Positions 2,605-40,122 of a DNA stretch of 64,000 bases are shown in pieces. Below the pieces are notes generated by a model. It had not been told where the DNA came from. It did no database searches and was given only the letters and a program-made list of their open reading frames with translations. This DNA comes from an uncultured Clostridia bacterium (GTDB lineage Bacteria > Bacillota > Clostridia > TANB77 > CAG-508), in assembly GCA_944390975.1 (NCBI GenBank), contig CALXRX010000003.1, forward strand, positions 25,115 through 89,114, read 5' to 3'. The position numbers and the translations under genes were made by a program. Numbering within the stretch: position 1 is the first letter of the stretch; every line of letters starts with the position of its first letter.

Positions 2605-3089
2605 ATTTCTATTAACAAGATATATATTAGCATATTTTATCTTTCTTTGTCAATACAATTTTTACATATTTTTAAAATAAGCTTATATTGCTAACCTTTT
2701 GCTAACCGTTTAATTTACTTTTATTAATTTATCAAACATATTAGCTACTTCTTGGTCTGCTTCCTTGTATAAGTAAGAATACAAATCTTTTTTTCTTTTC
2801 ATATTACTTAATATATTTTTTAGTTTAAAAAAAGAAGCAAGTTTATTTGCTTCTCAAAAATAGTACTAAAAAATACTCACTTTCACCTATCTTACTAACA
2901 AATATTTTTATCTATTTTTTATTTATCATAATAATTATTTTTTTATTATTATGAAAAGGACATAACTTGTTCCTATATATTTATGTGTCTTTTCATATAT
3001 TTTTTGGTATTTAAATCGCCCTGTGCTACGCTACGCATAGCACATTTCCTTTGCCAAGAAGTCCTAAGGCCTTCTCGGCAGGCACTATT

Positions 3090-4133
3090 TTATATTCCTA
3101 ACTCATATGCTGTTTCTTCTGAACTTCCATCTCCTGCTACTACTTTGATATCAGATTTTAGAGATATACAAGGACGAAACCCACGCTCATAGCTGTAGCT
3201 ATACGTGCGGCCATCAGACTCCACACCGCACAAGAAGTAGTTGTACAAGTCGCCGCTGGTATACACATAACGCACATTGAAATTGAAACCTGGCGAATAC
3301 GAAGACAAAGTACGGGATGCTAACCAGTAAACTTCTTTTGTTGTCAATATATTAGCTGCTTGCATTGCTGTTTGGTCTGTTGTATAGTTTTCATCTATCC
3401 ATTTTTGACATCCTGTATCTCTGCTTGTCCATCCACTTGGCAATGTATAATCATCTGGTATAAAAAAAGTTCCTTCTACTTCTGTATTTTTTGCATTAAA
3501 TTTTCCATCTGTTCCTATTGTTGGTACACTTCCTACACATCTTCCGTCTAATGCATATGAACTACTTTGTGCATAATATTCTGCTTTTTCATTTAACATT
3601 GCTATTGCATTATTATAATCGTTCATTGATGTTTGAAATGCTACTAAATCATTTTCTCCATCTGTTCCCAATGTTACATCTTCGATATTTTTATCTGATA
3701 TTATTTGTAATCCATATGTGTCATCATTATATAACACTCTAAATGTTACTACTCCATTTTCTCCTACTGAACTTATTCCAGTATTGTATTTTACATAATC
3801 TCCTGGTTGGGCCACACTTGCTAATGTTTCATAATTTGTACTAGGTGTATCTGTACCACCACTACTTCCTGTTCCACCTATTATATTATTTATTGTATTT
3901 TCAAAGTCTGATAACCCTGCTAGTTCTCTATCCTGTGCTTCCATATAATTCTTTCCTGCCATCTCTGCTGTTCTAAATATTCCATTCTCTCCTAATGTTA
4001 AATTTATTGTTACTCCCGCTAGTATTAATAGCACAATTATTGTTATAATTAATGCTATTAATGTGATACCTTTACTATTTGTCTTTTTACTTAACAATTC
4101 ATATTTACTTTTTGATTTTAAATTTTTCTTCAT
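3090..4133 (-). CDS. Pilin-like signal-anchored surface protein with a hypervariable (DGR-VR-like) C-terminal region, paralog 1
   Basis: N-terminus KGITLIALIITIIVLLILAGV resembles a prepilin-type cleavage/methylation segment. RBS GGAGG lies upstream of ATG 4133. About 90% identical to ORF 59541..60554 except for a 46-codon block before the conserved RPCISLKSDIKV tail. Confidence 0.8.
   Translation of the reverse strand: MKKNLKSKSKYELLSKKTNSKGITLIALIITIIVLLILAGVTINLTLGENGIFRTAEMAGKNYMEAQDRELAGLSDFENTINNIIGGTGSSGGTDTPSTNYETLASVAQPGDYVKYNTGISSVGENGVVTFRVLYNDDTYGLQIISDKNIEDVTLGTDGENDLVAFQTSMNDYNNAIAMLNEKAEYYAQSSSYALDGRCVGSVPTIGTDGKFNAKNTEVEGTFFIPDDYTLPSGWTSRDTGCQKWIDENYTTDQTAMQAANILTTKEVYWLASRTLSSYSPGFNFNVRYVYTSGDLYNYFLCGVESDGRTYSYSYERGFRPCISLKSDIKVVAGDGSSEETAYELGI
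3177..3314 (-). other. Hypervariable block (candidate DGR variable region, VR1)
   Basis: 138 nt, GC-rich and A-poor on the coding strand inside an AT-rich gene. 31 of 46 codons differ from the paralog at 59628..59765, and 36 of 43 nucleotide differences are at codon positions 1 or 2. Confidence 0.6.
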
Positions 4134-4206
4134 TTTTTCTTTTTCCTCCGTTTTCTTTCTTATTTTTTTGCTTTTGCATTTTTTTACTTTTTATTCATTA
4201 TGCTAT

Positions 4207-4399
4207 TTGTTTAACAGACTTTTAAACTTCAAATTTGAAAAAAACGCATTGAAAGTAATTTGCTTTAGATATTCTTAAATAATTTTATGGAAAGTGTTCA
4301 TTTTTAATGGAAGGGTGCCATAAAATTATTTTAGAATATCTTAGTAAATTATCTTGAACAAGTTTTTTGATAAATTTAAGTTTAAATTCTGTTAAACAA
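4207..4399 (-). promoter_or_regulatory. Long imperfect palindrome (about 193 nt) in the 5' leader of the variable-protein gene, copy 1
   Basis: Outer arms are TTGTTTAACAG...CTGTTAAACAA. Inner arms AGATATTCTTAAATAATTTTATGG / CCATAAAATTATTTTAGAATATCT flank a 27-nt centre. Nearly identical copy at 60639..60832. Confidence 0.6.
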
Positions 4400-4421
4400 T
4401 TCTTTCCTACTTTATGATACA

Positions 4422-4450
4422 ATTTTATATTTACTTCTATTACTTGTCAA
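4422..4450 (-). promoter_or_regulatory. Sigma-A-type promoter of variable-protein gene 1
   Basis: On the minus strand: TTGACA (4450..4445), 17-nt spacer, TAAAAT (4427..4422). The same arrangement is conserved at 60855..60883. Confidence 0.6.
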
Positions 4451-4562
4451 GCCTTTTTATATATCTTTTTTCTCTATTTTAAAATAAGCTTTTCCAGATA
4501 AGGTTTTTAAATAACTTTGTAAGAAAACAAAAAGAAGCCTTTAAAGACTCCTTTTTGTTTTC

Positions 4563-4736
4563 TTAATGTGATTTATTATTATATTTATAGCTACTACACA
4601 TTGATTCATCTGGGTTAGTTGTCTTACATTCTTGAACTGGTGTAACCATTATTTGTTCTAATGTACATTCTTGTTCTTTGTTTTTGTTGTATTTACAGCT
4701 TGTTACAGTACAATTTATTTTTTGCTTATTATCCAT
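4563..4736 (-). CDS. Small Cys-rich protein, DUF1540-like (57 aa), absent from the ORF track
   Basis: Translates MDNKQKINCTVTSCKYNKNKEQECTLEQIMVTPVQECKTTNPDESMCSSYKYNNKSH. The C-x-V-x-x-C-K-Y-N pattern matches DUF1540. A terminator hairpin follows. Confidence 0.6.
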   Translation of the reverse strand: MDNKQKINCTVTSCKYNKNKEQECTLEQIMVTPVQECKTTNPDESMCSSYKYNNKSH

Positions 4737-9929: not shown

Positions 9930-10376
9930 TTATGGTGATATTGGCTGTAATTTATCTATTAAAACATATATAGCTTTCCTTGCAAAGAAATTCCATATAA
10001 AAACTAATCCTGTAGAAATAATTTTGCTTAACATATAGTATAATCCTAATATAGAAGTAAACAACCACATAAATAAAGTATCAAAACCTAAACCTAATAC
10101 TCCAATTATGGCATATGTTATAAATTCAAGTACCAAGTTTAAATTATTTTCTTTTGAAAATACTAACCATTTGCTTAATATGTAATTAGTTATTAATCCG
10201 AATATAAATCCAATTACATTAGCAATTAAATAATGTATATTTAGCCATTCCTTGAAAATAAATAGTGAGCCTATATTTACAATGGCTGCAAATCCACCTA
10301 CAAATAAATATCTAAAAAATTGCAATTTTATATTTTCAGTTTTTTCTAGAACTATTTTATAAAATAGATTTTTCAA
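9930..10376 (-). CDS. GtrA-family membrane protein
   Basis: 148 aa, 4 TM, FRYLFVGGFAAIVNIG signature. Confidence 0.75.
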   Translation of the reverse strand: MKNLFYKIVLEKTENIKLQFFRYLFVGGFAAIVNIGSLFIFKEWLNIHYLIANVIGFIFGLITNYILSKWLVFSKENNLNLVLEFITYAIIGVLGLGFDTLFMWLFTSILGLYYMLSKIISTGLVFIWNFFARKAIYVLIDKLQPISP

Positions 10377-11652
10377 CTTTCCTATCTCCTTTAAATATGC
10401 CTAATGCATATATAATTAGTAATAACACACTTTCTACTGAACATAAAAATAGTCGTTCTTGTTCAAATGGTGCTTTTACAATTAATGCAAATATATTTGA
10501 AGCAATTAACACTGAAAAAAATGCTACATACCAATTTATTTTTTTGTTTTTAATTAAATTATAAACTAAATATATTACTGATACTATTATCATTACATAA
10601 ATAACTGCAAAATTTATAGGTAACAATATATGACCAATATCTTTATATCCAAAATTAGAATTTTCTATATCTACATATGTTGTACCTATATTCAATGTTG
10701 AAACATAAAATACCTTATTTATTAAATACTTATTATAATTTGGATCATTCTTAATTGCTGAACTTGCAAAATCTTTCTTTTCTTCTTCTGTGTAATTATT
10801 TTTAATTTTTCTCCATATTGTCCAAACGTTTTGAGTATTATTTTCTTCTTCAAAAGCTTTATCTATAGCTTCAACCATTTCTTTATTATCTGCAAATTTA
10901 TATGATTTATTATCTAAAGCTGTTATAAAATTATTTACATATGAAATACCTGATACAGAAAACACATTATGGTTTATTTTCATAAGCCAACAGTAGCCAA
11001 GAATTAGTGCCACACATATTATACATGATATTATGCCTGTCAAATTATTTTTTAATTCATTTTTATTAAATATAAATCTTAATAGCCAAAATAGTATATA
11101 AATTGGTAATAAATATATATATGAAGGTCTCGTCATTATCATTATAAATATAAGACCTACTATTAATCCTGCTAATATATTGTTTGATTTTTTTATATAT
11201 TTTAGTGTAAAAAATATTAGTAATGCCATTTCTAACATAGCTAGTGATTCTGTTAATATGACTGTATTCCATAAAATAATATTAGGACATATTCCAAATA
11301 TTATAGTAAAAATTGATAGAATTAGTGTATTATTTGTTATTTGTTTAATTGAATAATAAAATAATATAATTGTTATAATAAATAAAATTTCTTGAACTAT
11401 TACTACATTTCTTATGTAATTTTCTTGTCCACTTATTAGTTTGATTATTTTAATAAAATAAGGATATACTGGTGTTCTTTCCTCATCAACTTCTCCATTA
11501 AGAATATTTTCATCAAATTCTAAGTATGTGTTACTATCTCCTGCAAGTGTGTATTGATTTACTGTACTGTAAATTATTACTTGGCAAAGTATGCAAAAAA
11601 TTACAATAAATATAATATGCTCTTTAAATAAATTAATTATTTTATTCTTCAC
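10357..11652 (-). CDS. Polytopic membrane protein, possible GT-C-type glycosyltransferase
   Basis: 431 aa with more than 10 predicted TM helices, within the glycan cluster. No motif recognised with confidence. Confidence 0.4.
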   Translation of the reverse strand: MKNKIINLFKEHIIFIVIFCILCQVIIYSTVNQYTLAGDSNTYLEFDENILNGEVDEERTPVYPYFIKIIKLISGQENYIRNVVIVQEILFIITIILFYYSIKQITNNTLILSIFTIIFGICPNIILWNTVILTESLAMLEMALLIFFTLKYIKKSNNILAGLIVGLIFIMIMTRPSYIYLLPIYILFWLLRFIFNKNELKNNLTGIISCIICVALILGYCWLMKINHNVFSVSGISYVNNFITALDNKSYKFADNKEMVEAIDKAFEEENNTQNVWTIWRKIKNNYTEEEKKDFASSAIKNDPNYNKYLINKVFYVSTLNIGTTYVDIENSNFGYKDIGHILLPINFAVIYVMIIVSVIYLVYNLIKNKKINWYVAFFSVLIASNIFALIVKAPFEQERLFLCSVESVLLLIIYALGIFKGDRKVEKSIL

Positions 11653-11683
11653 TCACATATCAAACCCTTCAATTTCTTTTATA

Positions 11684-12457
11684 TTAGAATTCTTCTGCAA
11701 AACCTTTTTGTAATTTATTAAATATTAAGTATCCAACTATACATAAAATAATTGACAATACAAGTATTATTCCTAAAATTTTTAAATCAGGCATGGTTTG
11801 ATTATAAAATATATTTCTATATGCTGTTATTATATGAGCCATAGGATTTAGTGCCATTATTCCTTTAAATTCTGGTGGTATTGAGTCTAGAACATATACA
11901 ATTGGTGTTGCATAAAAAGCTACTTGTAATGCTATAGCAATTAGATGTTCTAAATCTCTTAAATAAACAGTTATGCTTGATACTATAAAACTAATTCCTA
12001 GGGATAAAATATATTGTATTAATAATATGAATGGATAAAATATTATGTATTTGCTAATTCCTACACCATAAAATATAACAAATGCAAGTATTATAACCGT
12101 TGATATTAGAAAATTTATTGTATTACTTGTTACTACAGCAATAGGTAAAATTTCTCTTGGGAAATATACTTTTTTTACAATATTTCCATTTGCTATCATA
12201 GTAAATGCTGCTTGTGATACTGTTGTAGTAAAAAATGTCCATGGTATAAGTCCAGTACACAAAAATACTACATATGGTTGTGGTCCATCTTTTAAAATAA
12301 GCGGGAATATTACAGCATATACTGCTAGCTGTAATAATGGATTTAAAAAAGACCATAATATTCCTAAAAATGAGTTCTTATATCTTCCTCTAATTTCTTT
12401 TTTTATATTAGTTTTTAACAATTCTCTATATTGATATATATTTTTAAATACGTTCAC
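11684..12457 (-). CDS. ABC-2-type polysaccharide/teichoic-acid export permease (TagG/Wzm-like)
   Basis: 257 aa, 6 TM, N-terminal YRELLKTNIKKEIRGRYKNSFLGILWSFLNP signature. Confidence 0.8.
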   Translation of the reverse strand: MNVFKNIYQYRELLKTNIKKEIRGRYKNSFLGILWSFLNPLLQLAVYAVIFPLILKDGPQPYVVFLCTGLIPWTFFTTTVSQAAFTMIANGNIVKKVYFPREILPIAVVTSNTINFLISTVIILAFVIFYGVGISKYIIFYPFILLIQYILSLGISFIVSSITVYLRDLEHLIAIALQVAFYATPIVYVLDSIPPEFKGIMALNPMAHIITAYRNIFYNQTMPDLKILGIILVLSIILCIVGYLIFNKLQKGFAEEF

Positions 12458-12483
12458 CTTTTTCTCCTTTCACTTTAGTTTTA

Positions 12484-13221
12484 TTAAGCTGTTTCCTTCA
12501 AATATGCTTCTACTACTGTTTTTGTATCCCCATCCATTTTAATATGCCCGTCACATAACCAAACAGCTCTTGTACATAATTGTTCTACTGAATGCATGCT
12601 ATGAGTAACAAAAACCATTGTTTTTCCTTCTTCTTTTAAGCTTCTCATTTTATCAAAACATTTATCCTGAAAATGTTGGTCTCCAACTGATAATATTTCA
12701 TCAATAAGTAATATTTCAGCATTTACATTTATTGCAACAGAAAATGCAAGTCTCATATACATTCCTGATGAATATGTTCTTACAGGATTATCAATAAACT
12801 CTCCTAATTCTGAAAATTCTATGATATCGTTTACTCTTGCATCTATTTCCTTTTTTGTTAATCCGAAAATTGAAGCATTAAAGTATATATTTTCCCTTCC
12901 AGAAAAGTCTGGATGAAAGCCTGCACCTAATTCTAAAAGTGAAGTTAATTTACCTTTTGTTGTAATTTTTCCGGTATTAGGATATATTATCTTTGTCATA
13001 AGCTTAAGTAGTGTTGATTTTCCACTACCATTTGTACCAATTAATCCAACTACTTCTCCTTTTTTTATTTCTAAATTTATATTTTCTAAAACTACATGTT
13101 TTTCTTTTCTATTTCTTTTGAAAAATAATAACTTTTCTTTTATAGTATTTGCTTTATCGTAATATATATTAAAACTTTTAGTAACATTTTCTACTGAAAT
13201 AACTGTTTCTTTTTCTTTCAC
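12484..13221 (-). CDS. ABC transporter ATP-binding protein (TagH/Wzt-like)
   Basis: Walker A GTNGSGKST, signature SSGM, Walker B LLIDE. Confidence 0.85.
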   Translation of the reverse strand: MKEKETVISVENVTKSFNIYYDKANTIKEKLLFFKRNRKEKHVVLENINLEIKKGEVVGLIGTNGSGKSTLLKLMTKIIYPNTGKITTKGKLTSLLELGAGFHPDFSGRENIYFNASIFGLTKKEIDARVNDIIEFSELGEFIDNPVRTYSSGMYMRLAFSVAINVNAEILLIDEILSVGDQHFQDKCFDKMRSLKEEGKTMVFVTHSMHSVEQLCTRAVWLCDGHIKMDGDTKTVVEAYLKETA

Positions 13222-13233
13222 TTCTTCACCTTC

Positions 13234-15423
13234 TTATAATTTAAATAATCTGTTAATCCTTAATCCATAAAATAGTTTTTTAGCTAATCTTCCTGGCCTT
13301 GAATCAACTAACCTATTTATTCTTCTCATTCTTTCTTCCATATATGGATCTACATTGTTTTGTGTTGGCTGCCCAGACATAAATGTTGGATTGTTCCAGT
13401 AAAATGGTTGCCCATTTGCAAGTAAAAGCATAAACACTTCAACAGCATATTTTCCATATAATTCTGGATAATTCCTACTTAAAACATCATATAAATAAAT
13501 TCTCATTTTTTTATTAAATTGTCTTGCCATTGAATTTTTTCTAACTCTATATATGTTTAATTCTTCTGGTATAGATACACCTAAACAACCATGATTTGCA
13601 AGAGATACCCAAGCATCATAGTCTTCCATTCCATATTCCATTTCTATCCTATTCTTTCCGAAATTTAAAAAGTCATTTTTTCTAATTACAGGAAAGGCTG
13701 CAAGCATATTTCCACATAATAAATAAGGAATATGTGTATTAAATGTTGCCCATGTATAATCATTTCCTTCAAAATATTTTACCCAGCTATATACATACGA
13801 AACATTATTATATTGATTTAATATATTTACTGCTTTTTCATAAAATGTCTCTTCTATTTTGTCATCTGCATCAATGAATGCAACAAATTCTCCTTTAGCA
13901 GCTTCTGCACCTACATTTCTTGCATTTGCAAGCCCTTTGTTTTTAATGTTTATAATTTTTATTTTTTTATCATTTTTTAATTCTTCTAATGCTTCTATAC
14001 TTTCTTTTTTATTGCTTCCATCATTAACAATAATAATTTCATAATTTTTATAAGTAGATTTTTTTATACTAAGTATAGTTTCTTGTATTGTTTCTCCAAG
14101 ATTATAATATGGAATTACAATTGATATAAGCCCTTTTTCACCTTCATAATTTTTATAATATGAATCCTTTTTTACCTCTTGTACAAATGGGAACTCTGTT
14201 TTACTTGTTTTCTTATTTTTAATAACTTCTTCAAAGAATTCCTCTCTTTTTCTTAAATTTCCTTCCATATTACATAATTCATGAATTCTTTTCTTAGCAT
14301 TGTTTCCCATAGTTTCTAAGTCTGATTTAGACATATTTAATAATTCTTCTAGCTTATTAGAAAAATCATCTTCTATATCCCAATCAAATATAATTCCGTT
14401 TTTCCCAGAAGTTTCAACCATTTCTGCTTGCCCACCACTTTTTGAAACTAGCACAGGTTTTCCTAACCACATTGAATATATGCAGGTATTAGGAAAGTTT
14501 TCATACAAAGATGGAATTGTTACAGCAGTAGCAGAAAGTATGTGAGGTATTAACTCTAAATGTGGTACTGAATTTCTTAATTCTAAATTGTCTTTTTCTA
14601 TATATTCTTTGTATTCTTTTTTTATTGCCTCTCCAATATAAGTTCCTTTGGGATCTAATATTGTATCTCCACCTATTATTTTTATTTTGAAATCTAATCC
14701 TTTATCCCAAAGTTTTTTTGCTCCTTTTAGCATTTGTATAACACCTTTTCTATATTCTGTTCTTCCAAAATATAGTATGGTTTTCTTTTCTTCATTTACT
14801 TGTACGTCTTTATATTTTTCTATTTCTTCTTTATCTATATCAAAAGGTAAATTTATTACTTTAATCGGTTTATCTGGTACAAGATATTGTAATTTATCTG
14901 CTAAAAATTGGCTTGGACATACAAGTGCATCTGCACCTTTTATACAAAACTTTTCCATTTCTCCTATCCAATAATATGGATGTTCGTATCGGTTAAATTG
15001 ATTAATTCTTAGAGTTTCAAAAGCAGGTGTATGCAAATGTACAACAATAGGTATATCTTGCAATTCTTTATTTAATAAATATTTATTTTGTATTAGATAT
15101 TGCCCCAGTGCATTATATTCTTGAGTTTCAATTAAATCAGGTTTTCCATCAATTTTCATTAATTCCATTATTTCTTCATAATATTGATATGCTAATGCAT
15201 TTTCATATCCTAAATATTTATAATATTCTGCTTGTCCTTGCTTAAATCTTAATACTTTATACCCTTCTTTTGTAGTTTCAATTTTTGTATTATTATTACC
15301 TCTAACAATTACTGTAATATCATGCCCAGCTTGTGCGAACATTTTTGCACAATTTTCTACATATGTGCCAATTCCTCCTCCAAATTCAGGTGCAAATTCT
15401 CCTGTTAGAAACCAAATTTTCAT
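13234..15423 (-). CDS. Bifunctional glycosyltransferase (N-terminal GT4, C-terminal GT2)
   Basis: The N-terminus GEFAPEFGGGIGTYV and the E-x7-E region are GT4-like. The C-terminal SIVIPYYN...IIIVNDGS...DADD is GT2-like. Confidence 0.75.
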   Translation of the reverse strand: MKIWFLTGEFAPEFGGGIGTYVENCAKMFAQAGHDITVIVRGNNNTKIETTKEGYKVLRFKQGQAEYYKYLGYENALAYQYYEEIMELMKIDGKPDLIETQEYNALGQYLIQNKYLLNKELQDIPIVVHLHTPAFETLRINQFNRYEHPYYWIGEMEKFCIKGADALVCPSQFLADKLQYLVPDKPIKVINLPFDIDKEEIEKYKDVQVNEEKKTILYFGRTEYRKGVIQMLKGAKKLWDKGLDFKIKIIGGDTILDPKGTYIGEAIKKEYKEYIEKDNLELRNSVPHLELIPHILSATAVTIPSLYENFPNTCIYSMWLGKPVLVSKSGGQAEMVETSGKNGIIFDWDIEDDFSNKLEELLNMSKSDLETMGNNAKKRIHELCNMEGNLRKREEFFEEVIKNKKTSKTEFPFVQEVKKDSYYKNYEGEKGLISIVIPYYNLGETIQETILSIKKSTYKNYEIIIVNDGSNKKESIEALEELKNDKKIKIINIKNKGLANARNVGAEAAKGEFVAFIDADDKIEETFYEKAVNILNQYNNVSYVYSWVKYFEGNDYTWATFNTHIPYLLCGNMLAAFPVIRKNDFLNFGKNRIEMEYGMEDYDAWVSLANHGCLGVSIPEELNIYRVRKNSMARQFNKKMRIYLYDVLSRNYPELYGKYAVEVFMLLLANGQPFYWNNPTFMSGQPTQNNVDPYMEERMRRINRLVDSRPGRLAKKLFYGLRINRLFKL

Positions 15424-15436
15424 TTTCTACATCCTT

Positions 15437-16781
15437 TCATTTTTTATTATTGCTAAATATACTTTTTATTTTTCTAATTATTCTATTATGTATTTTTTTT
15501 GAATTTTTAAATTTTTCTATTTCTTTTTGCATTCCTACATTATCTTGTGTGTATTCAAATTCTTCGATGGTTAATTTTGAAAAATTTTCATTAATTTCTT
15601 TTAATATTTCTTCTTTGTATATAGTATCTTTTGATACATATATTTCATTTATTTGTCTTGTTTCTATAATGTATTTAATGAAACTTAACCAATATTCTTG
15701 ATTAATAAAAGTTGTTAAATCAAATACTTTTGCATATTGTTCTATTTTTTGCCTATCTATATATTTAGAACTTAGAAGTGTTATAATAGTAATATCATAA
15801 TCATTTGATTCTAAACTTGATATCTTGTTATAATATTCTTTGTTAAATTTTAAATTTGGTAATATATATAGTATTCTTTTTCTTTTTAACTTTTTATTAA
15901 AATCTTTATTTTCCCAATTTAACTCTTTTTTGGGTAAGATGCTTTCTTGTATTGGATATATTTTTGCTTTTACTTCTTTTGTTATTTTATCTGCTTCTTT
16001 TTTTATGTCCCTAAGTCTTAATTCATTTTCTTTATTTTTATCATCATTTATATTTGTTAATAAACTTTTTGTACATCTTCTATACCAAAAACCATAAAAG
16101 TTCATTTGTACTGGAAAATATCCTTTTGCAAGCATTCTAAGCCATAAATGCCAATCTTCATTTACATATCTTTTTGCAACACCATATCCATTTAACTCTA
16201 AAATTTTATCTTTTCTAATTAGTGCTGTTGCAGTTAATATGTTTTCTTTTTTCATTCTATTTTTATCAAATTTTACATTCCACAAATATTTATATATACC
16301 AAATCCAACTGAATTTGAATATGCCCATGTAGCATCTTTATTTGTTCTTAATGACCAATATGCTGTTTCTATATATGTATCTATTATCAAATCATCAGAA
16401 TCTAGTGGAAGTATATAGTCAGTTGTAGCTTTAGATATTGCATAGTCTCTTCCTTTTGCTAGTCCTTCATTTTCTTTTTCATATATCTTTATTCTGTCAT
16501 CTATTTTAGAAATTTTTTCTAAAAATTCTTTTTCATTTTCACCGTGTACTTCCATCATTTACTATAATCCATTCCCAAAAAGGAAATGTTTGATTTAGTA
16601 CACAATTAACAGTTTGCATCATATATAAACTAGCATTATAGTATGAGGTTATAATGCTAACTAGAGGTTTACTATCTCCTTTTGCAATTACATCTTTTAG
16701 TTCTTTTCCAGGCTCTTTTTCATAATCAAAAAATACTTCTTCATCTTCCATATTAATTCCTCTTATTTTGATATTTGACAT
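15437..16781 (-). CDS. GT2-family glycosyltransferase. The frame breaks at in-frame CGG 16544..16542 (followed directly by TGA) and continues in the +1 frame.
   Basis: ORF 16539..16781 ends ...WIIVNDGSTR*. The +1 frame gives GENEKEF...LPLDSDD. Together they form one GT2 domain (SIITSYYN / VNDGS / DSDD). Confidence 0.7.
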
Positions 16782-16793
16782 TATATCATATAA

Positions 16794-17846
16794 TTATTTA
16801 TTGTCAAAATTTTTCATGTTATCTTCAAAAAAATTTCTATATTTTTTTGAAATATTTTCCCAAGAATAATTTTTTATTCTTTCTAAATTTTCTTTAGACA
16901 ACTCCCTAAGTATATTTTTGTTATTAATAATTTCTACTATCTTATTTTTTAATTCTTCTTTTGAGCGTTCATTTAATATATATTTTCTTTGCAAATCTCC
17001 TAAAGCCTCATTTACTATTCCTACATTTGTACTTACAATTGGTACTCCACAAGCCATGGCTTCAAGAATTGGATCTGGTGTTCCTTCTGTTTTTGAGGCA
17101 CATACATATAAATTTATAGAATTGTAATATTCTGGCATCTTGCTAATTGGTATTAAGCCTTCATTTCTATCTGCTAAATGCATTTTTATTTTATATCCTT
17201 CTTGTACTAATTCATTTATTGCTGGTTTTATTATGTTTTTTACACCTTTTAGGTCATCGTCATTTTCTAAATCATTAAATTTACTATTTCCAACCCAACC
17301 AATAATGATTTCATCAGGGTTATTGAATCTTTCTAAGTTTTCTGGTTTAAACAAATCTAAGTTTACTCCATCTTGTAAAACACCATAAGGATTTGGTAAA
17401 TCTTTTTGATTTATATATATTTCTTCTAATATTTGTGATGTAACAAAATAGTTCTTACAATATTTAAATATTTCTATTGTTCTCCAATATTCTGTTTTAT
17501 TCAAATATAAATGGTCACAAATGGTCATTGTAATATTTTTATTTATTATATATTCTTGTATAAATTCGTTTTTGCTCATTCCCAAGGTTTGTATATATTT
17601 GTCCATCTCTTCTCTATCTATTAATGATAAATACCCTCTCCAAAAAAAATGAATTAAATCATATTCTTTGCATAGTATGAATAGTTTTATCATATTTCCT
17701 TCAAAAATGTCTCCTGGTATTATAGTAATATCATAATAATCTTCTAACTGTTCTTTTAGATTTTTAGCAATATTGTGTAATGCCCAACCCGTTGTGTCTA
17801 TTATAAAAGCAAGTTTTGGTTTTCTTATATTTTTTTCCATAAGCAA
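16794..17846 (-). CDS. GT4-family glycosyltransferase
   Basis: C-terminal TEGTPDPILEAMACGVPIVSTNVG motif. Confidence 0.75.
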   Translation of the reverse strand: MLMEKNIRKPKLAFIIDTTGWALHNIAKNLKEQLEDYYDITIIPGDIFEGNMIKLFILCKEYDLIHFFWRGYLSLIDREEMDKYIQTLGMSKNEFIQEYIINKNITMTICDHLYLNKTEYWRTIEIFKYCKNYFVTSQILEEIYINQKDLPNPYGVLQDGVNLDLFKPENLERFNNPDEIIIGWVGNSKFNDLENDDDLKGVKNIIKPAINELVQEGYKIKMHLADRNEGLIPISKMPEYYNSINLYVCASKTEGTPDPILEAMACGVPIVSTNVGIVNEALGDLQRKYILNERSKEELKNKIVEIINNKNILRELSKENLERIKNYSWENISKKYRNFFEDNMKNFDNK

Positions 17847-18089
17847 TTATCTCCTTATTATCTTTTTTACTTTGCTTAAAAATTTATAACTTCTAGAATA
17901 TAAAATAGAATCTAGTTCGGCTCTAAGTGCTTTTTTCTCATTAATTAATTTTTCTTTTTGTTCATTATATTCTTTTTCTTTCTCTAAAAGTTTATTTGTA
18001 GCATTTTTTAAATTGCTTTTTACAAGTTCCAATTCTAATTCTAATTCATTTATTAATATCTGCTCTTTATTAATATTATCTTTTTCCAT
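17847..18089 (-). CDS. Small coiled-coil protein, unknown function
   Basis: 80 aa, heptad-rich (LELELELVKSNLKNATNKLLEKEKEY). Abuts the downstream GT gene with no gap. Confidence 0.4.
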   Translation of the reverse strand: MEKDNINKEQILINELELELELVKSNLKNATNKLLEKEKEYNEQKEKLINEKKALRAELDSILYSRSYKFLSKVKKIIRR

Positions 18090-18103
18090 AGCTAGTCTCC
18101 CTT

Positions 18104-18988
18104 TTACTTAAATTTAATTTTAGTTGCTATTATTCCAGGAATATATAAAATTGTAAATAAAATTTTGTTGAATGTCCATTTAACATTTTTTAAAGCTTCC
18201 TTAAATTTTACATTTGTTAAACTTGAAAATAATATATAATGCTTTATTAAATACATTCTTTTATTAAAGTATATCCCTTTACAGTTCATGTCAAACATTT
18301 CTTTAAAATATTTATAATAGCCATATGGATATTTCTTAAAAGTCTCATTTATATTATTAGTATATCCTTCTGTTTGATATTCGCATATCATTATAGGTTC
18401 ATTAAAGCATTTAATTTTATATTTTAAATCCATTTTATGGTGCATTCTAGCTTCTGTAATAAATTTTTCATTATTTTCCAGTTCATAACTATATTGTTTT
18501 CTAATTTTAGCATTGTATACTAAAGCTTTTTCTCCATCCTCACCCTGTTTAAAGTATAAATCAAACATTGTTGTTTCTTTTTCTTTAAATAAATTTCCTA
18601 AATTGCATTGGTTTTGGTCATATTTCAAATAACATAGAGCATATGTTTTTTCGTCTATTAGATGATAAGATTTATTTATTATATTAAAAGCATTTTCTTT
18701 AAAGTAATCATCTGAATCACATTCTATAATTAAATCTCCTGTTGAATATGGTATAAGTTTATTTATTGCTACCATTTTCCCACTATTTTCTTGACTATAA
18801 TACTGAATATCAAATTTATTATCTTGTATAAATTCTTCTACCATTTTTTGTGTATCATCACTAGAGCCATCATCCATAATTAACCATTCTATTTCTACTT
18901 TATTAGTTAGATTTTTTACTATACTATTATATAATCTTTTAAGTAATTTACTTCTATTATAAGTTGCTGTTAAAATAGATATTTTCAT
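18104..18988 (-). CDS. GT2-family glycosyltransferase
   Basis: ISILTATYNR...LIMDDGSSDDT...CDSDD. Confidence 0.8.
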   Translation of the reverse strand: MKISILTATYNRSKLLKRLYNSIVKNLTNKVEIEWLIMDDGSSDDTQKMVEEFIQDNKFDIQYYSQENSGKMVAINKLIPYSTGDLIIECDSDDYFKENAFNIINKSYHLIDEKTYALCYLKYDQNQCNLGNLFKEKETTMFDLYFKQGEDGEKALVYNAKIRKQYSYELENNEKFITEARMHHKMDLKYKIKCFNEPIMICEYQTEGYTNNINETFKKYPYGYYKYFKEMFDMNCKGIYFNKRMYLIKHYILFSSLTNVKFKEALKNVKWTFNKILFTILYIPGIIATKIKFK

Positions 18989-19028
18989 AACATATCACCT
19001 TCTACGTTCTTAGTTCATATATGTTTTA

Positions 19029-20147
19029 CTAGATTATTGCTTTTATTTTTTCTAATATTTTATCGTTATTATATTCTTCTTTTATATTTTCTTGTTTTTC
19101 ATATTTTTCTCTATTTATAATAATATCTTTTAGTCCTTTATAAATTGCTTCTTCGTTGTTTTCTAAAACAATACTTTTTTTATAATTTTGTACAACTTCT
19201 TTTGCTGTTGTATTTGTAATAATAAACTTGTCTAATATTTTTGCTTCTTCTAAAACCATTGGATAACCTTCAAAATATGATAATAAACAGATATAATCTG
19301 CATTTTTCATAAAAACATATGGGTTTTCTTTTTCTCCCAATAAATAGAATGTATCTTCAACATTTTGCTTTTTTATTTGTTGTTTTAATTCATTTTCTAA
19401 AGGTCCTCCTCCAATAACATATATATAATGCTTAACATCGTCTTTTATTAGTCGTTCATGAATATTAATAAGTCTATCAAAAGCTTTTGCATTAACTAGT
19501 CTTCCTACAGATACTATATTTACTCCATCTTTTTTTAAAGAAATTTTACCCTCTTGGTCTGCTTTTTTTAATACTTTTTCTTTATTTATATAATTATGAA
19601 TCACTTCTAATTTTTCACTATCTATTTTAGGATTTACTTCTTTAAATTTCCTTAAACTTTCACTACTAACTAATATAATCTTATTATAATTTTTATAAAC
19701 ATTTTTATTAATTATATTTTTTAATTTTGACTTAAATGAATTTCCAAATATTTTAGAAATATCTGTATGTACCCATGCAATTTTCTTAGTTTTTATATCA
19801 TCTTTTACACTAAACAGTCTAGTAATAGGTCCTTCTAAAAAAGCTATTTCTGTGTCATAATTATTTTTTATATATTTATTATATATTTGTTTTTTGAATA
19901 ATAATAGTCTTAAAGAAACTATTATTTTATTTAGTTTTGAAAATTCATTATATGATTTTTTATATAAACTTTTTACCTCAATATTTTTAGGTAAATCCTT
20001 CTCAAGTTCCCCTTTTCCATATAAAGTAAAAATGGTAATTTTAAATTCTTTTTCAATTTTTTCAATTATATCAATTAAAGTTCTTTCTGCTCCTCCAACA
20101 GTTAAACTTGTTATTCCAAATATTATTTTTTTCAAATATTTTACCAT
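19029..20147 (-). CDS. GT4-family glycosyltransferase
   Basis: TSLTVGGAERTLIDI at the N-terminus and SYFEGYPMVLEEA at the C-terminus. Confidence 0.75.
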   Translation of the reverse strand: MVKYLKKIIFGITSLTVGGAERTLIDIIEKIEKEFKITIFTLYGKGELEKDLPKNIEVKSLYKKSYNEFSKLNKIIVSLRLLLFKKQIYNKYIKNNYDTEIAFLEGPITRLFSVKDDIKTKKIAWVHTDISKIFGNSFKSKLKNIINKNVYKNYNKIILVSSESLRKFKEVNPKIDSEKLEVIHNYINKEKVLKKADQEGKISLKKDGVNIVSVGRLVNAKAFDRLINIHERLIKDDVKHYIYVIGGGPLENELKQQIKKQNVEDTFYLLGEKENPYVFMKNADYICLLSYFEGYPMVLEEAKILDKFIITNTTAKEVVQNYKKSIVLENNEEAIYKGLKDIIINREKYEKQENIKEEYNNDKILEKIKAII

Positions 20148-20186
20148 ATATAATAAATAATAACTTTTATTTATTATACCTTTCTT

Positions 20187-21584
20187 CTAGTTTTTATTGT
20201 TCAATTCTTTTGTATTTATTATTAATAATGTACTTAAAACAATTACTATAATCATACTTGATGAATTAAAAAATGTATAACCTGATAGGAATGAAAATGC
20301 AAAACTGAAAAATAATCCAAAAAGATTCATCATATATTCTGCATTTAATTTGTGTCTATTTTTTATGCCTACAAATAGTCCATATATAAATATTGATAAT
20401 AAAGGTACAAAATATAATATAAATCCTAAAATTCCGAAATTTAGTAAAAATGCTGGTATTTCCATTTCTAATATTAATTCGTTAAAATTAGCTTGAAATC
20501 CATTACCAAATAATAACAGCATTATATTAGATTGGTTTTTCACTAAATATATATTATAAATTAGCTGTTGTGCTCTCATATCATTATTAGCAATTTGGTA
20601 TTTATTTGCAAAATTATATAAATCCATAATAGATTTTTTATTTGCTTCTGACATATATCCTTCTTCTAGTCCATTTTTTTCTATTTTTTCCTTAATTCCT
20701 AGTAATGCATTTGATATATGTGTTACTTCTTGTCCAGATTGTTGTACTTCTTCTAAATGCTGTCTTCTTTTTAATGTATTAGAGCCAAATGCTGTAACAC
20801 CTATTACTACAATAATTATAACGCTTATGCTTATTATTAGTACATTTTTGTTTAATTGAATATGCTTTAAAATAGATGCAAGTAATTCGCTTAGTCCATA
20901 CAAGAATAATACACAAATAAATCCAAATAAACCTACTCTAGTCCCTAGCATTAGTGTAGTATATATTCCTACTAATATTACTATTGAAACTGCCCAATAT
21001 CTATATTTTCTTTCTTTTATCATTGTGAATATAATAAACATTGACAAAATTAAAATTGCACCAATACTATTTCCAGTTTCAAACCAACCTTTATATCCAA
21101 TACCCTCTATATAAGTAGATGTAGATGTATTGGTAATAATTGATAACCAAATAGAAATTATATAAATACTTATAGTAATTAAAACACTTCTTTTTAGCTT
21201 ATCTTTTGGTTTATCTTTAAATATATAAATATATATAAATAAATTTAATATCATAAATGAATAATTAACAATAAATTGTAATTCATTTATGATTCCACCA
21301 AAAGAACTTCCTGTTTTTATGTTATTAAATAACCATAAATGGATTATTGCATATATTGCATATATTAAAGCTACTAATATAAGTTTTAATTTTATTTTTT
21401 CTTTAAGGAATAAAATTAAAATTACAATTATGGGTAAAATTGGCCTAATAAATGTTGATGGAGAAAAGTTTGTTTCAAAAAAGCTTCTAAATAGAAAACT
21501 AGCAATATCTAATATTGGACATAATATAATTATTAAGCATAACAAATTTTCTAGATTTAATTTTTCTTTAATAAATTGTTTCAT
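20187..21584 (-). CDS. O-antigen ligase/polymerase-like (Wzy family) membrane protein
   Basis: 465 aa with more than 10 TM helices and a large loop, in the glycan cluster. Confidence 0.5.
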   Translation of the reverse strand: MKQFIKEKLNLENLLCLIIILCPILDIASFLFRSFFETNFSPSTFIRPILPIIVILILFLKEKIKLKLILVALIYAIYAIIHLWLFNNIKTGSSFGGIINELQFIVNYSFMILNLFIYIYIFKDKPKDKLKRSVLITISIYIISIWLSIITNTSTSTYIEGIGYKGWFETGNSIGAILILSMFIIFTMIKERKYRYWAVSIVILVGIYTTLMLGTRVGLFGFICVLFLYGLSELLASILKHIQLNKNVLIISISVIIIVVIGVTAFGSNTLKRRQHLEEVQQSGQEVTHISNALLGIKEKIEKNGLEEGYMSEANKKSIMDLYNFANKYQIANNDMRAQQLIYNIYLVKNQSNIMLLLFGNGFQANFNELILEMEIPAFLLNFGILGFILYFVPLLSIFIYGLFVGIKNRHKLNAEYMMNLFGLFFSFAFSFLSGYTFFNSSSMIIVIVLSTLLIINTKELNNKN

Positions 21585-21595
21585 TATTACCTCTT

Positions 21596-22549
21596 TTAAA
21601 AAATTCTAAATATTAATGCATATATTCTATATGTAAATCTATTCACACTTAACATATATCTTTTTTTTAAATTAAGTTCTTTGTTTAATATCGGGTTTTC
21701 TTTACATAATGGGAATTTTTCATATAAATATACCCATGTTTTGTTTAACAATTCTTTCCTACATATTTTGTCTTTAATTTTACAAATTCTTTTAAAAGAA
21801 CTACATAATAGCAATCTCATAAAAGTAAATTCTAATACATCTTTATAATCATCATATATTTTCTTTTCTTTGTAATATGATAGTACATTGTCTAATATTT
21901 TGAATATGTCTTGTGTTTTTTGGTCTTGAGTATTAATAATTGATTTCTTTCTTTGCACATAATATATAAGTGGCTCTTTTACAAAACTAACATTTTCAAT
22001 ATATGGTACTATTTTATAAAAAAATTCTACATCCTCATATACTAATCCTTTTGGAAATTCTATACCAGATTTATCTATTATTTCTTTTTTATATAATTTA
22101 TTCCATGCAACAACTCTTGCTTTTTCTATCATTTCTTTTTTTCCATAATATTTTTGTCCTATATCTTTTTTATTTTTTCTTGGATATGACCAATAAAAAT
22201 TACATTCAACCATATCACTATCTTCTTTTTTTGCTTTTTCATACATTTTTTCATATAAACTTTTTTCTACATAATCATCTGAATCTAAAAAAGCAATATA
22301 TTTTCCTGTTGCATATTTCAACCCATAATTTCTTGCATCTGATAGTCCACCATTTTCTTTTCTGTAATATTTTATATTACTATATTTTTTTTCATATTCT
22401 TTTGCAATATCTGCTGAACTATCTTTAGAGCCATCATCTACTATAATTATTTCTATATCTTTTAGTGTTTGATTTACAAGTGATTCTAAGCATCTTCTTA
22501 AATATAGTTCTACATTATATACAGGAACAATTATACTTACTTTTGTCAT
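21596..22549 (-). CDS. GT2-family glycosyltransferase
   Basis: VSIIVPVYNVELYL...IIIVDDGSKD...LDSDDY. Confidence 0.85.
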   Translation of the reverse strand: MTKVSIIVPVYNVELYLRRCLESLVNQTLKDIEIIIVDDGSKDSSADIAKEYEKKYSNIKYYRKENGGLSDARNYGLKYATGKYIAFLDSDDYVEKSLYEKMYEKAKKEDSDMVECNFYWSYPRKNKKDIGQKYYGKKEMIEKARVVAWNKLYKKEIIDKSGIEFPKGLVYEDVEFFYKIVPYIENVSFVKEPLIYYVQRKKSIINTQDQKTQDIFKILDNVLSYYKEKKIYDDYKDVLEFTFMRLLLCSSFKRICKIKDKICRKELLNKTWVYLYEKFPLCKENPILNKELNLKKRYMLSVNRFTYRIYALIFRIF

Positions 22550-22574
22550 ATCTAATCTATTATCCTTTCATAAC

Positions 22575-23522
22575 TTATTTTAATTTTAAGTACCATTTAA
22601 TGTTTAAAAATAGTATTATTTTTTTTATTGCTTGTTTAAAATTATGTATTTGTATATTTTTAATCATTTTTCTCTTTTTTATTTCGCTAATATAAATATC
22701 TAAATCTTGTTTTTTTAAATCTTTTAATTTCAAAATTATTGCATTTGTATAATATGTTTTTACATTTTTTTCAGTTTCACTAGTTAAATTCTCTTTTTGT
22801 ATAAACTCTAGCATTGTATCGTAATGTTTAAATACATCTTTTGTTTTTTTTATTGTTCTAGAATAATCCTCATTTCTTGTAATACTATTTGTAGTTTGCA
22901 AATAGCAATACCCATATAAATTAATTGAAACTACTTTTTTTGCTTTCAAAATTATAAGAGGAATTAACCCAAAATCTTCATGCTCTGTATCTGTTTTAAA
23001 TTTAAAATTATTTTTTTTAAACAATTCTTTTTTAAATAAGTATATACATGGAGAATCTATCAAAACATCTGAAAATGCAAGTATGTTAAATGCTTTTTGC
23101 CCATCTACCTGGTCAAATGCAGGTCCATCTATTTTTTCTAGAATTTCCCCTTTTTCATTTACTTTTTCTAGTTTAAATTTTACAATATCCATATCTTTAT
23201 CTATGTATTTTTCTAATTCTTCAATAAGATTTTCTTTAATATAATCATCAGAATCTACAAAAAGTATGTATTTTCCTATAGCTTTAGATATGCCAAAATT
23301 TCTTGTATCTGCAATTCCAGTGTTTTCTTTTTTATAATATTTTATTAAATTAGGATTTTCATTTTTATATTTTTGTATAATTTCTTCTGAATTATCATTT
23401 GAGCCATCATCTATAACTATTATCTCAATTTGTTCTTTGGCTTGTACTAGTATTGAATTTAAGCACTTTTTTAAGTATTGGCTTGTATTATATACTGGTA
23501 CAATTATACTTAAATTTATCAT
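22575..23522 (-). CDS. GT2-family glycosyltransferase
   Basis: LSIIVPVYNTSQYL...IIVIDDGSND...VDSDDY. Confidence 0.85.
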   Translation of the reverse strand: MINLSIIVPVYNTSQYLKKCLNSILVQAKEQIEIIVIDDGSNDNSEEIIQKYKNENPNLIKYYKKENTGIADTRNFGISKAIGKYILFVDSDDYIKENLIEELEKYIDKDMDIVKFKLEKVNEKGEILEKIDGPAFDQVDGQKAFNILAFSDVLIDSPCIYLFKKELFKKNNFKFKTDTEHEDFGLIPLIILKAKKVVSINLYGYCYLQTTNSITRNEDYSRTIKKTKDVFKHYDTMLEFIQKENLTSETEKNVKTYYTNAIILKLKDLKKQDLDIYISEIKKRKMIKNIQIHNFKQAIKKIILFLNIKWYLKLK

Positions 23523-23549
23523 TTAATACTTCCTATCTATATAATATTT

Positions 23550-24632
23550 TTAATTAATTATATGGTTTAATTTTTCCATTATTTCTTTATTATAATTTTC
23601 TGGATTAAACTTTTCTTTTATTTTATAACCATTTTGTATAAATTCCTTCATTGCTATATATAAATCTTTTTCATTCTTTTTTATTACTTTACCATATTTA
23701 TTATTTATATCTTTCATTGCATCAGATATATTTGTAGTTATAATTGGTTTATTTAATATGAGTGCTTCTAAAAAAACTACTGGATATCCTTCATAATCTG
23801 AAGTTAATAATATGGCATCTGCTAATTTCATATATGGATATGGATTACTTTTAGCTCCTATGAATTCAATTTTATCTTGTAATTTAAATTTTTTAACTAG
23901 ATTTTTATATAAATTAGTATCTTTTCCATCACCTACAAAAAGTATTTTAAAGTTTAGACCATCCTTTTTTAGAAACCTTGCCGCTTTTATTATTCTTGTT
24001 AATTTTTTTTGTAATTCGTCGTGTCGACCAATATTAACAAATGTATATGTGTCATTTTTTGTTTTAGTAATTTTTTCTTTTGATAATTCGATTATTTTAT
24101 TATAATCTATTAAATTATTACAAAATATAACTTTTTGCTTTAATTCTGGATATACTTGTAAAAATGTTTGTGATGCTTTATTAGATACAAATATTATTTT
24201 TTTAAATTTTTTACAATGTAATTTTTCAAAAAAACTTTTTACTTTTTTCTTGTCTTTTTTAAATAATTCTAAATAATCAGCATGACACCATAGTGCATTG
24301 TTTTTAGATGCATTTCTTGCAACAAATGAGCCTACATAAGAATATGTTGCAAAAGAAGCGGAAAAATCATATTTATTTTTGTATTTTAATATAAATGTAA
24401 TTCTTTTAATTAAATTAGATATCTTCCTTAGGATAATAATTTTATTTTCGTTTATTTTATATTCTACAATATTTATATTGGGGTTTAAATCGTTTAAAAA
24501 TTTTCCTTGTTTTTTTTCTAATACTAATGTTATATCATATTGTTTATTTGCTAAATAGTTTAATAGTGTTAACAAGGATGTTTCTATTCCACCAATATTC
24601 ATATCATATGCTGAAAATAATAGTTTCTTCAT
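23550..24632 (-). CDS. GT4-family glycosyltransferase, first gene of the glycan cluster
   Basis: MNIGGIETSLLTLL at the N-terminus and SDYEGYPVVFLEA at the C-terminus. Confidence 0.75.
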   Translation of the reverse strand: MKKLLFSAYDMNIGGIETSLLTLLNYLANKQYDITLVLEKKQGKFLNDLNPNINIVEYKINENKIIILRKISNLIKRITFILKYKNKYDFSASFATYSYVGSFVARNASKNNALWCHADYLELFKKDKKKVKSFFEKLHCKKFKKIIFVSNKASQTFLQVYPELKQKVIFCNNLIDYNKIIELSKEKITKTKNDTYTFVNIGRHDELQKKLTRIIKAARFLKKDGLNFKILFVGDGKDTNLYKNLVKKFKLQDKIEFIGAKSNPYPYMKLADAILLTSDYEGYPVVFLEALILNKPIITTNISDAMKDINNKYGKVIKKNEKDLYIAMKEFIQNGYKIKEKFNPENYNKEIMEKLNHIIN

Positions 24633-39954: not shown

Positions 39955-40122
39955 ATTGTGGTATCATCTAAAATAGCACAATTCTAAAACTGTATGATTA
40001 TATTTCAGATCATCTAATAAGTTTTATTACTATCTAAAATAACGCAATTCTAAAACGTTACATTTGCTCCATAAATATTTGTATTTGTTTTATTACTATC
40101 TAAAATAACACAATTCTAAAAC
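39955..40122 (-). CRISPR. Mini CRISPR array with three 36-nt repeats and two 30-nt spacers
   Basis: Repeats at 40087..40122 and 40021..40056 differ by 1 nt. A degenerate repeat lies at 39955..39990. In cas9 sense the repeat reads GTTTTAGAATTGCGTTATTTTAGATAGTAATAAAAC. Spacers are at 40057..40086 and 39991..40020. Confidence 0.85.

Follow-up and report, generated by a model that had tools for sequence, protein, structure and literature searches.

Diversity-generating retroelements (DGRs), their remote targets, their MutS-like (MSL) accessory genes and variable-region (VR) domains of a C-type-lectin-like (CLec-like) kind are already known. MSL and Avd accessory genes have been found together in 16 DGRs, including the one of Legionella (PMC5758913), and two papers describe DUF6273 as a DGR target domain of the C-type-lectin-like kind whose C terminus holds the VR (PMC10743442, PMC11792537). 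As for anchoring, modular type IV pilins, such as PilB of Streptococcus sanguinis, carry an adhesive module on a pilin-like N terminus (PMC8179133), and in gut bacteria DGRs diversify pilus-associated adhesins, as in the type V pili of Bacteroides (bioRxiv 10.1101/2024.11.15.621889); our literature search found no paper tying DGRs to type IV pilin-like proteins. Here, we analyzed a 64,000-nucleotide stretch of DNA from an uncultured Clostridia bacterium (GenBank assembly GCA_944390975.1, contig CALXRX010000003.1, positions 25,115 to 89,114; referred to as the window), which contains two paralogous genes, A and B, with a highly divergent block near the end of each. Comparison with homologous loci strongly supports the notion that this block is, in kind, a DGR variable region, apparently written by mutagenic retrohoming. 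We consider it probable that the cassette has been deleted and that both VRs are now frozen relics in genes that still encode intact, probably expressed surface proteins.

A block of concentrated divergence between two paralogous genes

Gene A (3090..4133) is an open reading frame (ORF) of 347 amino acids, identical to a database protein (P0001), and gene B (59541..60554) is a paralogous ORF of 337 amino acids. Both exist as an earlier note on this DNA describes them, and they lie on the minus strand. The note's estimate of ~90% identity outside the block was somewhat too high: we find ~87% for DNA and 84 to 85% for protein. Along the DNA alignment, most 30-nt windows show 80 to 97% identity, and identity falls to 60 to 77% across the block bounded by YWLAS and RPCISLKSD.

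Within this block (3177..3314 in A versus 59628..59765 in B), 43 of 138 nt differ, distributed as 20, 16 and 7 over codon positions 1, 2 and 3, and 31 of the 46 codons are changed, which reproduces the earlier counts of 31 codons and of 36 differences at positions 1 or 2. The third position is the one that differs most in the rest of the gene (28/18/46 at positions 1/2/3 over 228 codons). Site differences amount to 31% in the block versus 13% in the remaining gene (Fisher p = 7.5e-7), and the bias toward positions 1 and 2 also separates the two (p = 8.7e-5). The block is GC-rich and poor in adenine, as had been pointed out before: adenine accounts for 25 of 138 nt (18%) in both copies versus 44% in the rest of gene A, while GC reaches 48 to 51% versus 31% in the rest of gene A and 25% in the whole window. 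The limits given in the earlier note mark a real block, but the footprint homologous to a template repeat (TR) is slightly wider, with 155 nt in each gene. On the minus strand, these footprints are VR-A (3169..3323, which contains 3177..3314 and was delimited by codon-for-codon alignment with the TR of locus L016, introduced below) and VR-B (59620..59774).

A homolog with a complete adjacent DGR explains the pattern of variability

A database search yielded >4,552 homologs, in which variability is concentrated in the same block. They derive from metagenome-assembled genomes (MAGs) of uncultured Clostridia, including samples from chicken, rabbit and human (Hadza) gut, and by sequence A and B are members of a very large family of predicted cell-surface proteins of uncultured gut Clostridia. 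The C-terminal consensus of this family is YWLASRxVxSxSSxCxFxVRxVxTSGxLxxxxLCxVxSDGxTxGxSxExGLRPCISLKSD, with variability at the positions marked x.

Using an Asn-rich form of the consensus as a tblastn query, we found a nongenic copy of the block, with the translation LASRNVNSNSNNSNFNVRNVNTSGNLNNNNLCNVNSNGNTNNNSNTNGFRP, in MAG BRZ_GT__bin15 (locus L016). Upstream of this TR, at a distance of 0.9 kb, is a full-length homolog of A and B, with 34% identity over residues 6 to 339. The locus comprises the target gene (9995..11179), a MutS_I-domain protein (11228..11701), bAvd (11673..12017), the TR (12039..12193), a convergent reverse transcriptase (RT) gene (12373..13326; RVT_1, E = 7e-18) and a second MutS_I protein (13326..13745). 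Over the 155 nt of TR and VR there are 24 mismatches, of which 24/24 fall at TR adenines (hypergeometric p = 1.5e-13).

Codon by codon, the L016 TR can be aligned with the VRs of A, B and two paralogs from a sister species (L001, ~85% DNA identity). Among these four VRs, 45 of the 54 sites opposite TR adenines are variable versus 18 of the 101 others (Fisher p = 1e-15). In 76 family members, each AAY site is occupied by 12 to 17 residue types, and the residues not encodable by NNY (K, E, Q, M and W) make up 2.6% at AAY sites versus 16.9% protein-wide; the invariant VR codons are adenine-free and GC-rich. The proposal that the block is a DGR variable region is thus borne out by a homolog with a complete adjacent DGR, whose TR adenines coincide with the variable sites of the window genes, and the interspersion of variable residues among fixed scaffold codons corresponds to an NNY repertoire at AAY sites between adenine-free codons. 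Given that the variable sites lie on TR adenines and the residues there are NNY restricted, ordinary diversifying selection fails to explain the pattern. Mechanistically, cDNA made from an Asn-codon-rich template repeat, with errors at the template adenines, would have replaced the VR.

A truncated cassette segment lies downstream of gene A

Directly after the stop codon of gene A, RNA folding predicts two GC-rich hairpins on the minus strand (3052..3080 and 3022..3044). Hairpin homologs follow the DGR-adjacent targets in L097 (both) and L016 (the first only), as well as an orphan target in L020 (both). About 40 nt past the hairpins begins a sequence homologous to the cassette segment between the TR and the terminator, which we identified with nhmmer as a putative truncated post-TR segment of a DGR cassette (2827..2978, minus strand); it ends in a terminator at 2832..2855. 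The nhmmer profile was built from the post-TR segments of 5 cassettes, with the window left out, and has 208 positions. It gave a single match in the window (2978..2827, E = 4.6e-14), extending over profile positions 49 to 201 of 208. Since the match starts at position 49, the TR-proximal hairpin of the segment is missing in the window; the remnant has none of the 48 profile positions nearest the TR, nor is it accompanied by a TR, bAvd, a MutS-like gene or an RT. All other matches to the profile are full-length and lie beside TRs, which makes the window copy the only truncated one.

Local alignment of the remnant gave z = 16 against L016 and z = 15 against L091. Two motifs of the segment, ATATAGGAACAAGTTATGTCC (2958..2978) and AAAATAGATAAAAATATTTGTTAGTA (2893..2918), occur once each in the window, with 0 expected by chance, and in 1.34 Mb of fetched loci both are found together only beside TRs (in complete cassettes and in L036) and here. 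The truncated copy beside A suggests that a cassette was probably deleted at this site. The region downstream of gene B differs from that of A and is common to the L001 paralogs, as expected for a remote target. A TR hidden in the 485-nt region downstream of A was considered and rejected, only the post-TR part being present there.

The post-TR segment (12194..12400 in L016, and homologs) is strongly conserved across cassettes with different targets. Its translation in the frame of the TR is ...RPVASINCGYTI.DCIRDNIET.YVL, and it includes the hairpin TTATACAAT/ATTGTATAA; within the DGR RNA, the segment may serve for priming or as a spacer. Rfam gave no match for the post-TR element, the post-stop hairpins or the leader hairpin of gene A described below.

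The VRs of A and B diverge at sites that a common template would keep identical

Retrohoming replaces the whole VR, and targets fed by one TR should therefore match at non-adenine positions. This is what we observed for the L001 paralogs, which differ at 3 of 101 non-adenine VR sites versus 30 of 96 flank sites, with 30 of 54 adenine sites different. In the window, A and B differ at 29 of 54 adenine sites, but also at 16 of 101 non-adenine VR sites versus 14 of 96 flank sites. Divergence at third codon positions in VR, scaffold and tail follows the same contrast, being 15%, 20% and 18% for A and B versus 2%, 19% and 4% for the L001 pair.

From the VRs of A, B and the two L001 paralogs we then inferred a clade TR, with which each of the four was compared. 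VR-A shows 26 mismatches at inferred adenines and 7 private non-adenine changes, and VR-B shows 29 and 8, respectively, versus 1 non-adenine mismatch in each of the L001 VRs. The changes include scaffold substitutions (V6L and C13F in A; R4H, R18G, L26V and V34G in B) and, in each of VR-A and VR-B, a Glu codon at an AAY site, which requires a third-position change and thus cannot be made by adenine mutagenesis. Of 22 fixed scaffold positions, 3 deviate in each of A and B. Half of the family shows 0 or 1 such deviation and the three sister-genome paralogs show 0; the count is 4 to 6 in the nearest relatives of A and B. The idea that both VRs are currently served in trans by one TR, put forward earlier, finds no support in view of the unhomogenized non-adenine sites, the scaffold decay, the Glu codons, the invariance of VR-B and the cassette remnant beside A.

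The earlier note had proposed to look for VR heterogeneity within the population; among assemblies of near-clonal strains, VR-B is invariant. Four other metagenome assemblies carry gene B: three of them (L085, L087 and L088) have zero DNA differences in the gene, including VR-B, and the fourth encodes the identical protein. By accession, the B protein is the same in ERZ28614461, ERZ28614877 and ERZ24773278, and in ERZ28614468 the gene is identical in DNA but called from a later start, with 331 amino acids. The assemblies sharing VR-B come from two studies.

Short-read assemblies of the same strain (L083, L088, L085, L089 and L090) break repeatedly around both paralogs. In other assemblies B stands alone on contigs of 1.1 to 1.6 kb, and VR-A was never seen in another sample. 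These breaks fit a picture in which the flanks common to A and B act as repeats.

Search for DGR components in the window and beyond

The earlier note reported no RT, Avd or TR in the window, and our similarity searches and motif scans agree. Three DGR RTs of the clade gave no tblastn match (E < 0.01) in the 64 kb, no ORF of the window combines GNxxSQ and YxDD motifs, and bAvd and MutS-like queries gave no tblastn match there. When we searched the window by blastn (word size 7) and with a TR-like, Asn-rich tblastn query, only the two VRs came up. Searching more widely for a cognate TR, we used lineage-specific DNA patterns consisting of the VR invariants with N at the variable sites; these gave 0 matches in genome, viral (two patterns) and metagenome collections, in which the lineage is absent.

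A search with the predicted TR peptide retrieved 30 TR ORFs (P0242-P0271) that gene callers had annotated as small ORFs. None of them fits as the cognate TR, the closest (P0251, in L097) belonging to another lineage, with 25 to 30 non-adenine mismatches to the window VRs. The L091 and L098 cassettes were likewise rejected as cognate, their targets being of other VR types. RTs of this type have >4,200 homologs, and one of them (P0195) belongs to a chromosomal cassette in samples from the same two studies as the VR-B assemblies, with a target of another VR type.

Two further loci of this clade were observed in the course of these searches. In L091-L096 (RT P0172), a DGR cassette in the order MutS_I, RT, TR ORF, bAvd, MutS_I and target is part of a small element, along with genes for a Mob_Pre relaxase, helix-turn-helix (HTH) regulators, a sigma-70 region-4 protein and DUF3846. 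It is listed in 52 blocks of the collection, we read 24 of the contigs that carry it, and it looks like a mobilizable DGR carrier. In L036, the region 9983..11400 holds a target that is pilin-like and has a different type of VR; its TR comes directly after it, and then a complete post-TR segment. Within 10 kb there is no Avd, MSL or RT. Most of the mismatches between TR and VR fall at adenines, and there is one 3-nt indel. This locus suggests that TR modules can be separated from the RT in this clade.

Probable loss of the cassette and alternative explanations

The explanation that we favor starts from a cassette (MutS-like gene, bAvd, TR and convergent RT) that would once have lain directly downstream of gene A. 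Its deletion would have left the two post-stop hairpins and the distal post-TR segment with its terminator, and after the loss both VRs would have evolved as ordinary sequence, as frozen variants not diversified by a common TR.

Several points weigh against this explanation. Only 64 kb of the source genome is in view, and the DNA-pattern scans of three collections were without matches. DGRs with targets >100 kb away are known (Wu et al., PMC5758913), and L036, from this clade, has a TR without RT or Avd within 10 kb. The assemblies with VR-B are almost clonal (~1 single-nucleotide polymorphism per 1.5 to 7 kb), so that the invariance of VR-B is weak evidence, and the A locus does not assemble in other samples, where contigs break ~500 nt downstream. 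The remnant could in principle be a 3' untranslated region and terminator module common to targets and cassettes, but it includes part of a segment that is conserved inside cassettes. Finally, the 84-nt tail of A (3090..3173) is identical to L001 9371..9454, which belongs to an apparently active target of another species, despite a difference of 24% at scaffold third positions between A and that paralog, whereas the tail of VR-B has diverged (8 differences in 84 nt). Together with the 7 private changes of VR-A, the identical tail could indicate that a diverged TR belonging to A wrote this gene not very long ago; the tail may also be a cis-acting element for target recognition that is constrained at the nucleotide level, or the product of recent exchange or recombination.

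A possible, though somewhat doubtful, alternative is that diversification in trans still reaches one VR or both, from a single DGR or from two DGRs or TRs located elsewhere in the genome, possibly on a mobilizable element. If homing were rare, consensus assemblies would look invariant. Remote targets are documented for non-phage DGRs (PMC5758913), L036 combines a TR and post-TR module with no RT nearby, and cassettes of this RT family are abundant (the >4,200 RT homologs), some on Mob_Pre elements and another one chromosomal in samples from the same two studies. The tail and hairpins of A are well conserved, and the adenine-site divergence of A and B (29/54) equals that of the apparently active L001 pair (30/54). 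However, one TR cannot feed both A and B, whose 16 non-adenine differences are as many as those in the flanks, so this alternative would need separate or diverged TRs for the two genes. Each VR carries a codon beyond the reach of adenine mutagenesis in addition to scaffold substitutions, the cassette expected beside A is gone, and VR-B is without variation in other assemblies. None of the recovered TR ORFs or cassettes is cognate either, L097 having 25 to 30 non-adenine mismatches and L091 and L098 belonging to other VR types.

A related but unlikely view is that the DGR is modular, in that orphan targets lie dormant and keep their cis elements, while RT, Avd and MutS-like proteins act in trans, possibly carried between strains by Mob_Pre elements. 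The cis elements would be the post-stop hairpins, the conserved 84-nt tail and sometimes a TR with a post-TR module, as in L036. If this were true, the window genes could be diversified again whenever a compatible cassette arrives.

The remaining and very improbable explanation, in which no retroelement ever took part and the block arose through ordinary point mutations favored by diversifying selection or through recombination of the paralogs, can point to a window without RT or TR and to 16 A/B differences outside the inferred adenine sites, but it is effectively refuted by the homolog with an adjacent DGR and 24/24 mismatches at adenines, the mapping of variable sites to TR adenines (p = 1e-15), the NNY-restricted residues at AAY sites, invariant codons that lack adenine and are rich in GC while the genome has 25% GC, and the cassette remnant beside A.

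Protein architecture and predicted fold

Gene A encodes a pilin-like hydrophobic N-terminal anchor, a long helix, a Gly/Ser/Thr linker and a globular domain that ends in the VR. The pilin-like N-terminal signal or transmembrane segment (3999..4082, minus strand) consists of KG followed by ITLIALIITIIVLLILAG, with a putative cleavage site between KG and ITLIA and Ala, not Glu, at +5. The Pfam model N_methyl matches A with E = 0.0099 and 15.9 bits, under its cutoff of 21.2 bits, and B with E = 0.061, also under the cutoff, and the prepilin models of NCBIfam match neither. A long N-terminal helix is predicted, and the description of both proteins as pilin anchored is only suggestive. The same N-terminal segment is present in DGR targets with other types of C terminus (L070, L072 and L036). 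No further pilin-like N terminus was found in the window, in which pilus-machinery genes were not searched for. We also considered a link to the "pilin-like proteins" of TANB77 (PMC11680825), with no sequence link established.

Following the earlier suggestion of a structure prediction, we modeled A with AlphaFold2 (AF2). The full-length model, made with 32 homologs, is confident, with a predicted local distance difference test (pLDDT) score of 81 overall and >90 for residues 100 to 347, but it brought no significant structural match. In this model, a long N-terminal helix (residues 22 to 86) is followed by the disordered Gly/Ser/Thr linker and the globular part (residues 100 to 347), in which the VR forms β-strands near the C terminus; for the C-terminal 160 amino acids alone, the pLDDT is 46. 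Foldseek searches of PDB and BFVD with the full-length model found no structure at E < 1e-3; among relevant matches, the mannose-binding protein 1bv4 ranked best (E = 0.47, not significant). A sequence-profile search of PDB gave no match, and neither did the Pfam models FGE-sulfatase, DUF1566 and Fib_succ_major. The VR peptide of the family consensus, which is TR-like, matches the C-terminal end of DUF6273 (positions 125 to 172 of the 172 in that profile) with E = 0.0077 and 16.5 bits, below the threshold of 23.5 bits. Given this match and the papers on DUF6273 as a DGR target domain, a C-type-lectin fold, the framing of the earlier note, is plausible for the globular domain.

Flanking sequences and other features of the window

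The predicted promoter and 5' leader of A occupy 4134..4470 (minus strand) and have a counterpart upstream of B (60555..60903). The leaders (~340 nt) are 93% identical, versus 85% over the aligned stretch of gene plus leader. A promoter scan of the A leader gave a near-consensus TTGACA-17-TAAAAT at 4450..4422, and a hairpin of ~190 nt is predicted at 4207..4399 (-55.8 kcal/mol, z = -5.8). DNA similarity to the L001 species stops ~80 nt upstream of the start, so that the leader is apparently unconserved there. A small Cys-rich ORF (MDNKQKINCTVTSCKYNKNKEQECTLEQIMVTPVQECK...; 4565..4735, minus strand) with its own terminator lies between a peroxiredoxin-like gene and the A promoter. On both sides of gene B there is a 70-nt element (59342..59410 and 61037..61106) whose copies are 94% identical, and a similar sequence is present after each of the two L001 paralogs; the element may represent a small repeat or a structured terminator.

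Annotation covered a subset of the ORFs in the window. A type II Cas9 with REC, HNH, RuvC and PI domains is encoded at 40116..44048, and at its 3' end is a repeat with a 66-nt period in 2.4 copies (39966..40123), possibly a minimal CRISPR array. The stretches 10357..24632 and 48480..49505 hold a run of glycosyltransferases with a PMT_2 protein and an O-antigen-ligase-like protein, which look like a surface polysaccharide cluster, and, further on, a RhuM-family protein.

Implications and comparison with known systems

The two paralogs alone allowed a DGR variable region to be recognized, and the recognition could be checked against a homolog with an intact cassette. The family brought to light here is very large and unannotated; its members are DGR-diversified surface proteins of uncultured gut Clostridia that carry a pilin-like anchor. 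The window would also provide a concrete trace of DGR loss, in the form of intact, expressed-looking genes with frozen VRs and a truncated post-TR remnant. In censuses of DGR targets built on signatures of hypervariability, orphans of this kind would inflate the counts or cause confusion, and comparing divergence at non-adenine VR sites with that of the flanks offers a simple test for distinguishing live from fossil targets. We regard this test and the link of DGRs to pilin-like proteins as modestly new, the case itself being that of an orphaned member of a large target family.

Among described systems, the CLec2 or DUF1566-type class (category "d" of Wu et al. 2018; LdtA of Legionella) resembles A and B in its C-terminal VR of ~50 codons within a W-x-x-S ... 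R-P frame, its AAY-rich TR and its surface-anchored protein, and the cassettes related to the window genes also carry MSL and Avd. In contrast to this class, A and B have no DUF1566 or Fib_succ_major match, only the subthreshold one to DUF6273, and their anchor is a pilin-like N-terminal segment instead of a lipoprotein signal. The RT of the related cassettes is, moreover, convergent with the target-MSL-avd-TR operon, and the window copy appears to have lost its cassette. The DUF6273 targets of Faecalibacterium prophages and the "tentaclins" share with A and B the position of the VR at the C-terminal end of the domain, but they are phage tail proteins, whereas A and B are cellular proteins encoded on the chromosome, whose anchor is of a membrane or pilin-like type and whose DUF6273 match is below threshold. 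The concept of PilB and of type V pili is the same as the one suggested here, with the pilin identity of A and B itself only suggested by a subthreshold N_methyl match and no Glu5.

The DGRs of Treponema denticola and "Lineage 4" (PMC5758913) are alike in having several paralogous chromosomal targets far from any RT. A pattern of this kind is seen in the sister genome (L001), where two, probably three, paralogs are homogenized at non-adenine sites. The window differs in that its VRs are not homogenized and there is no TR, which points to an orphaned state of A and B rather than to a working system in which one TR serves many VRs.

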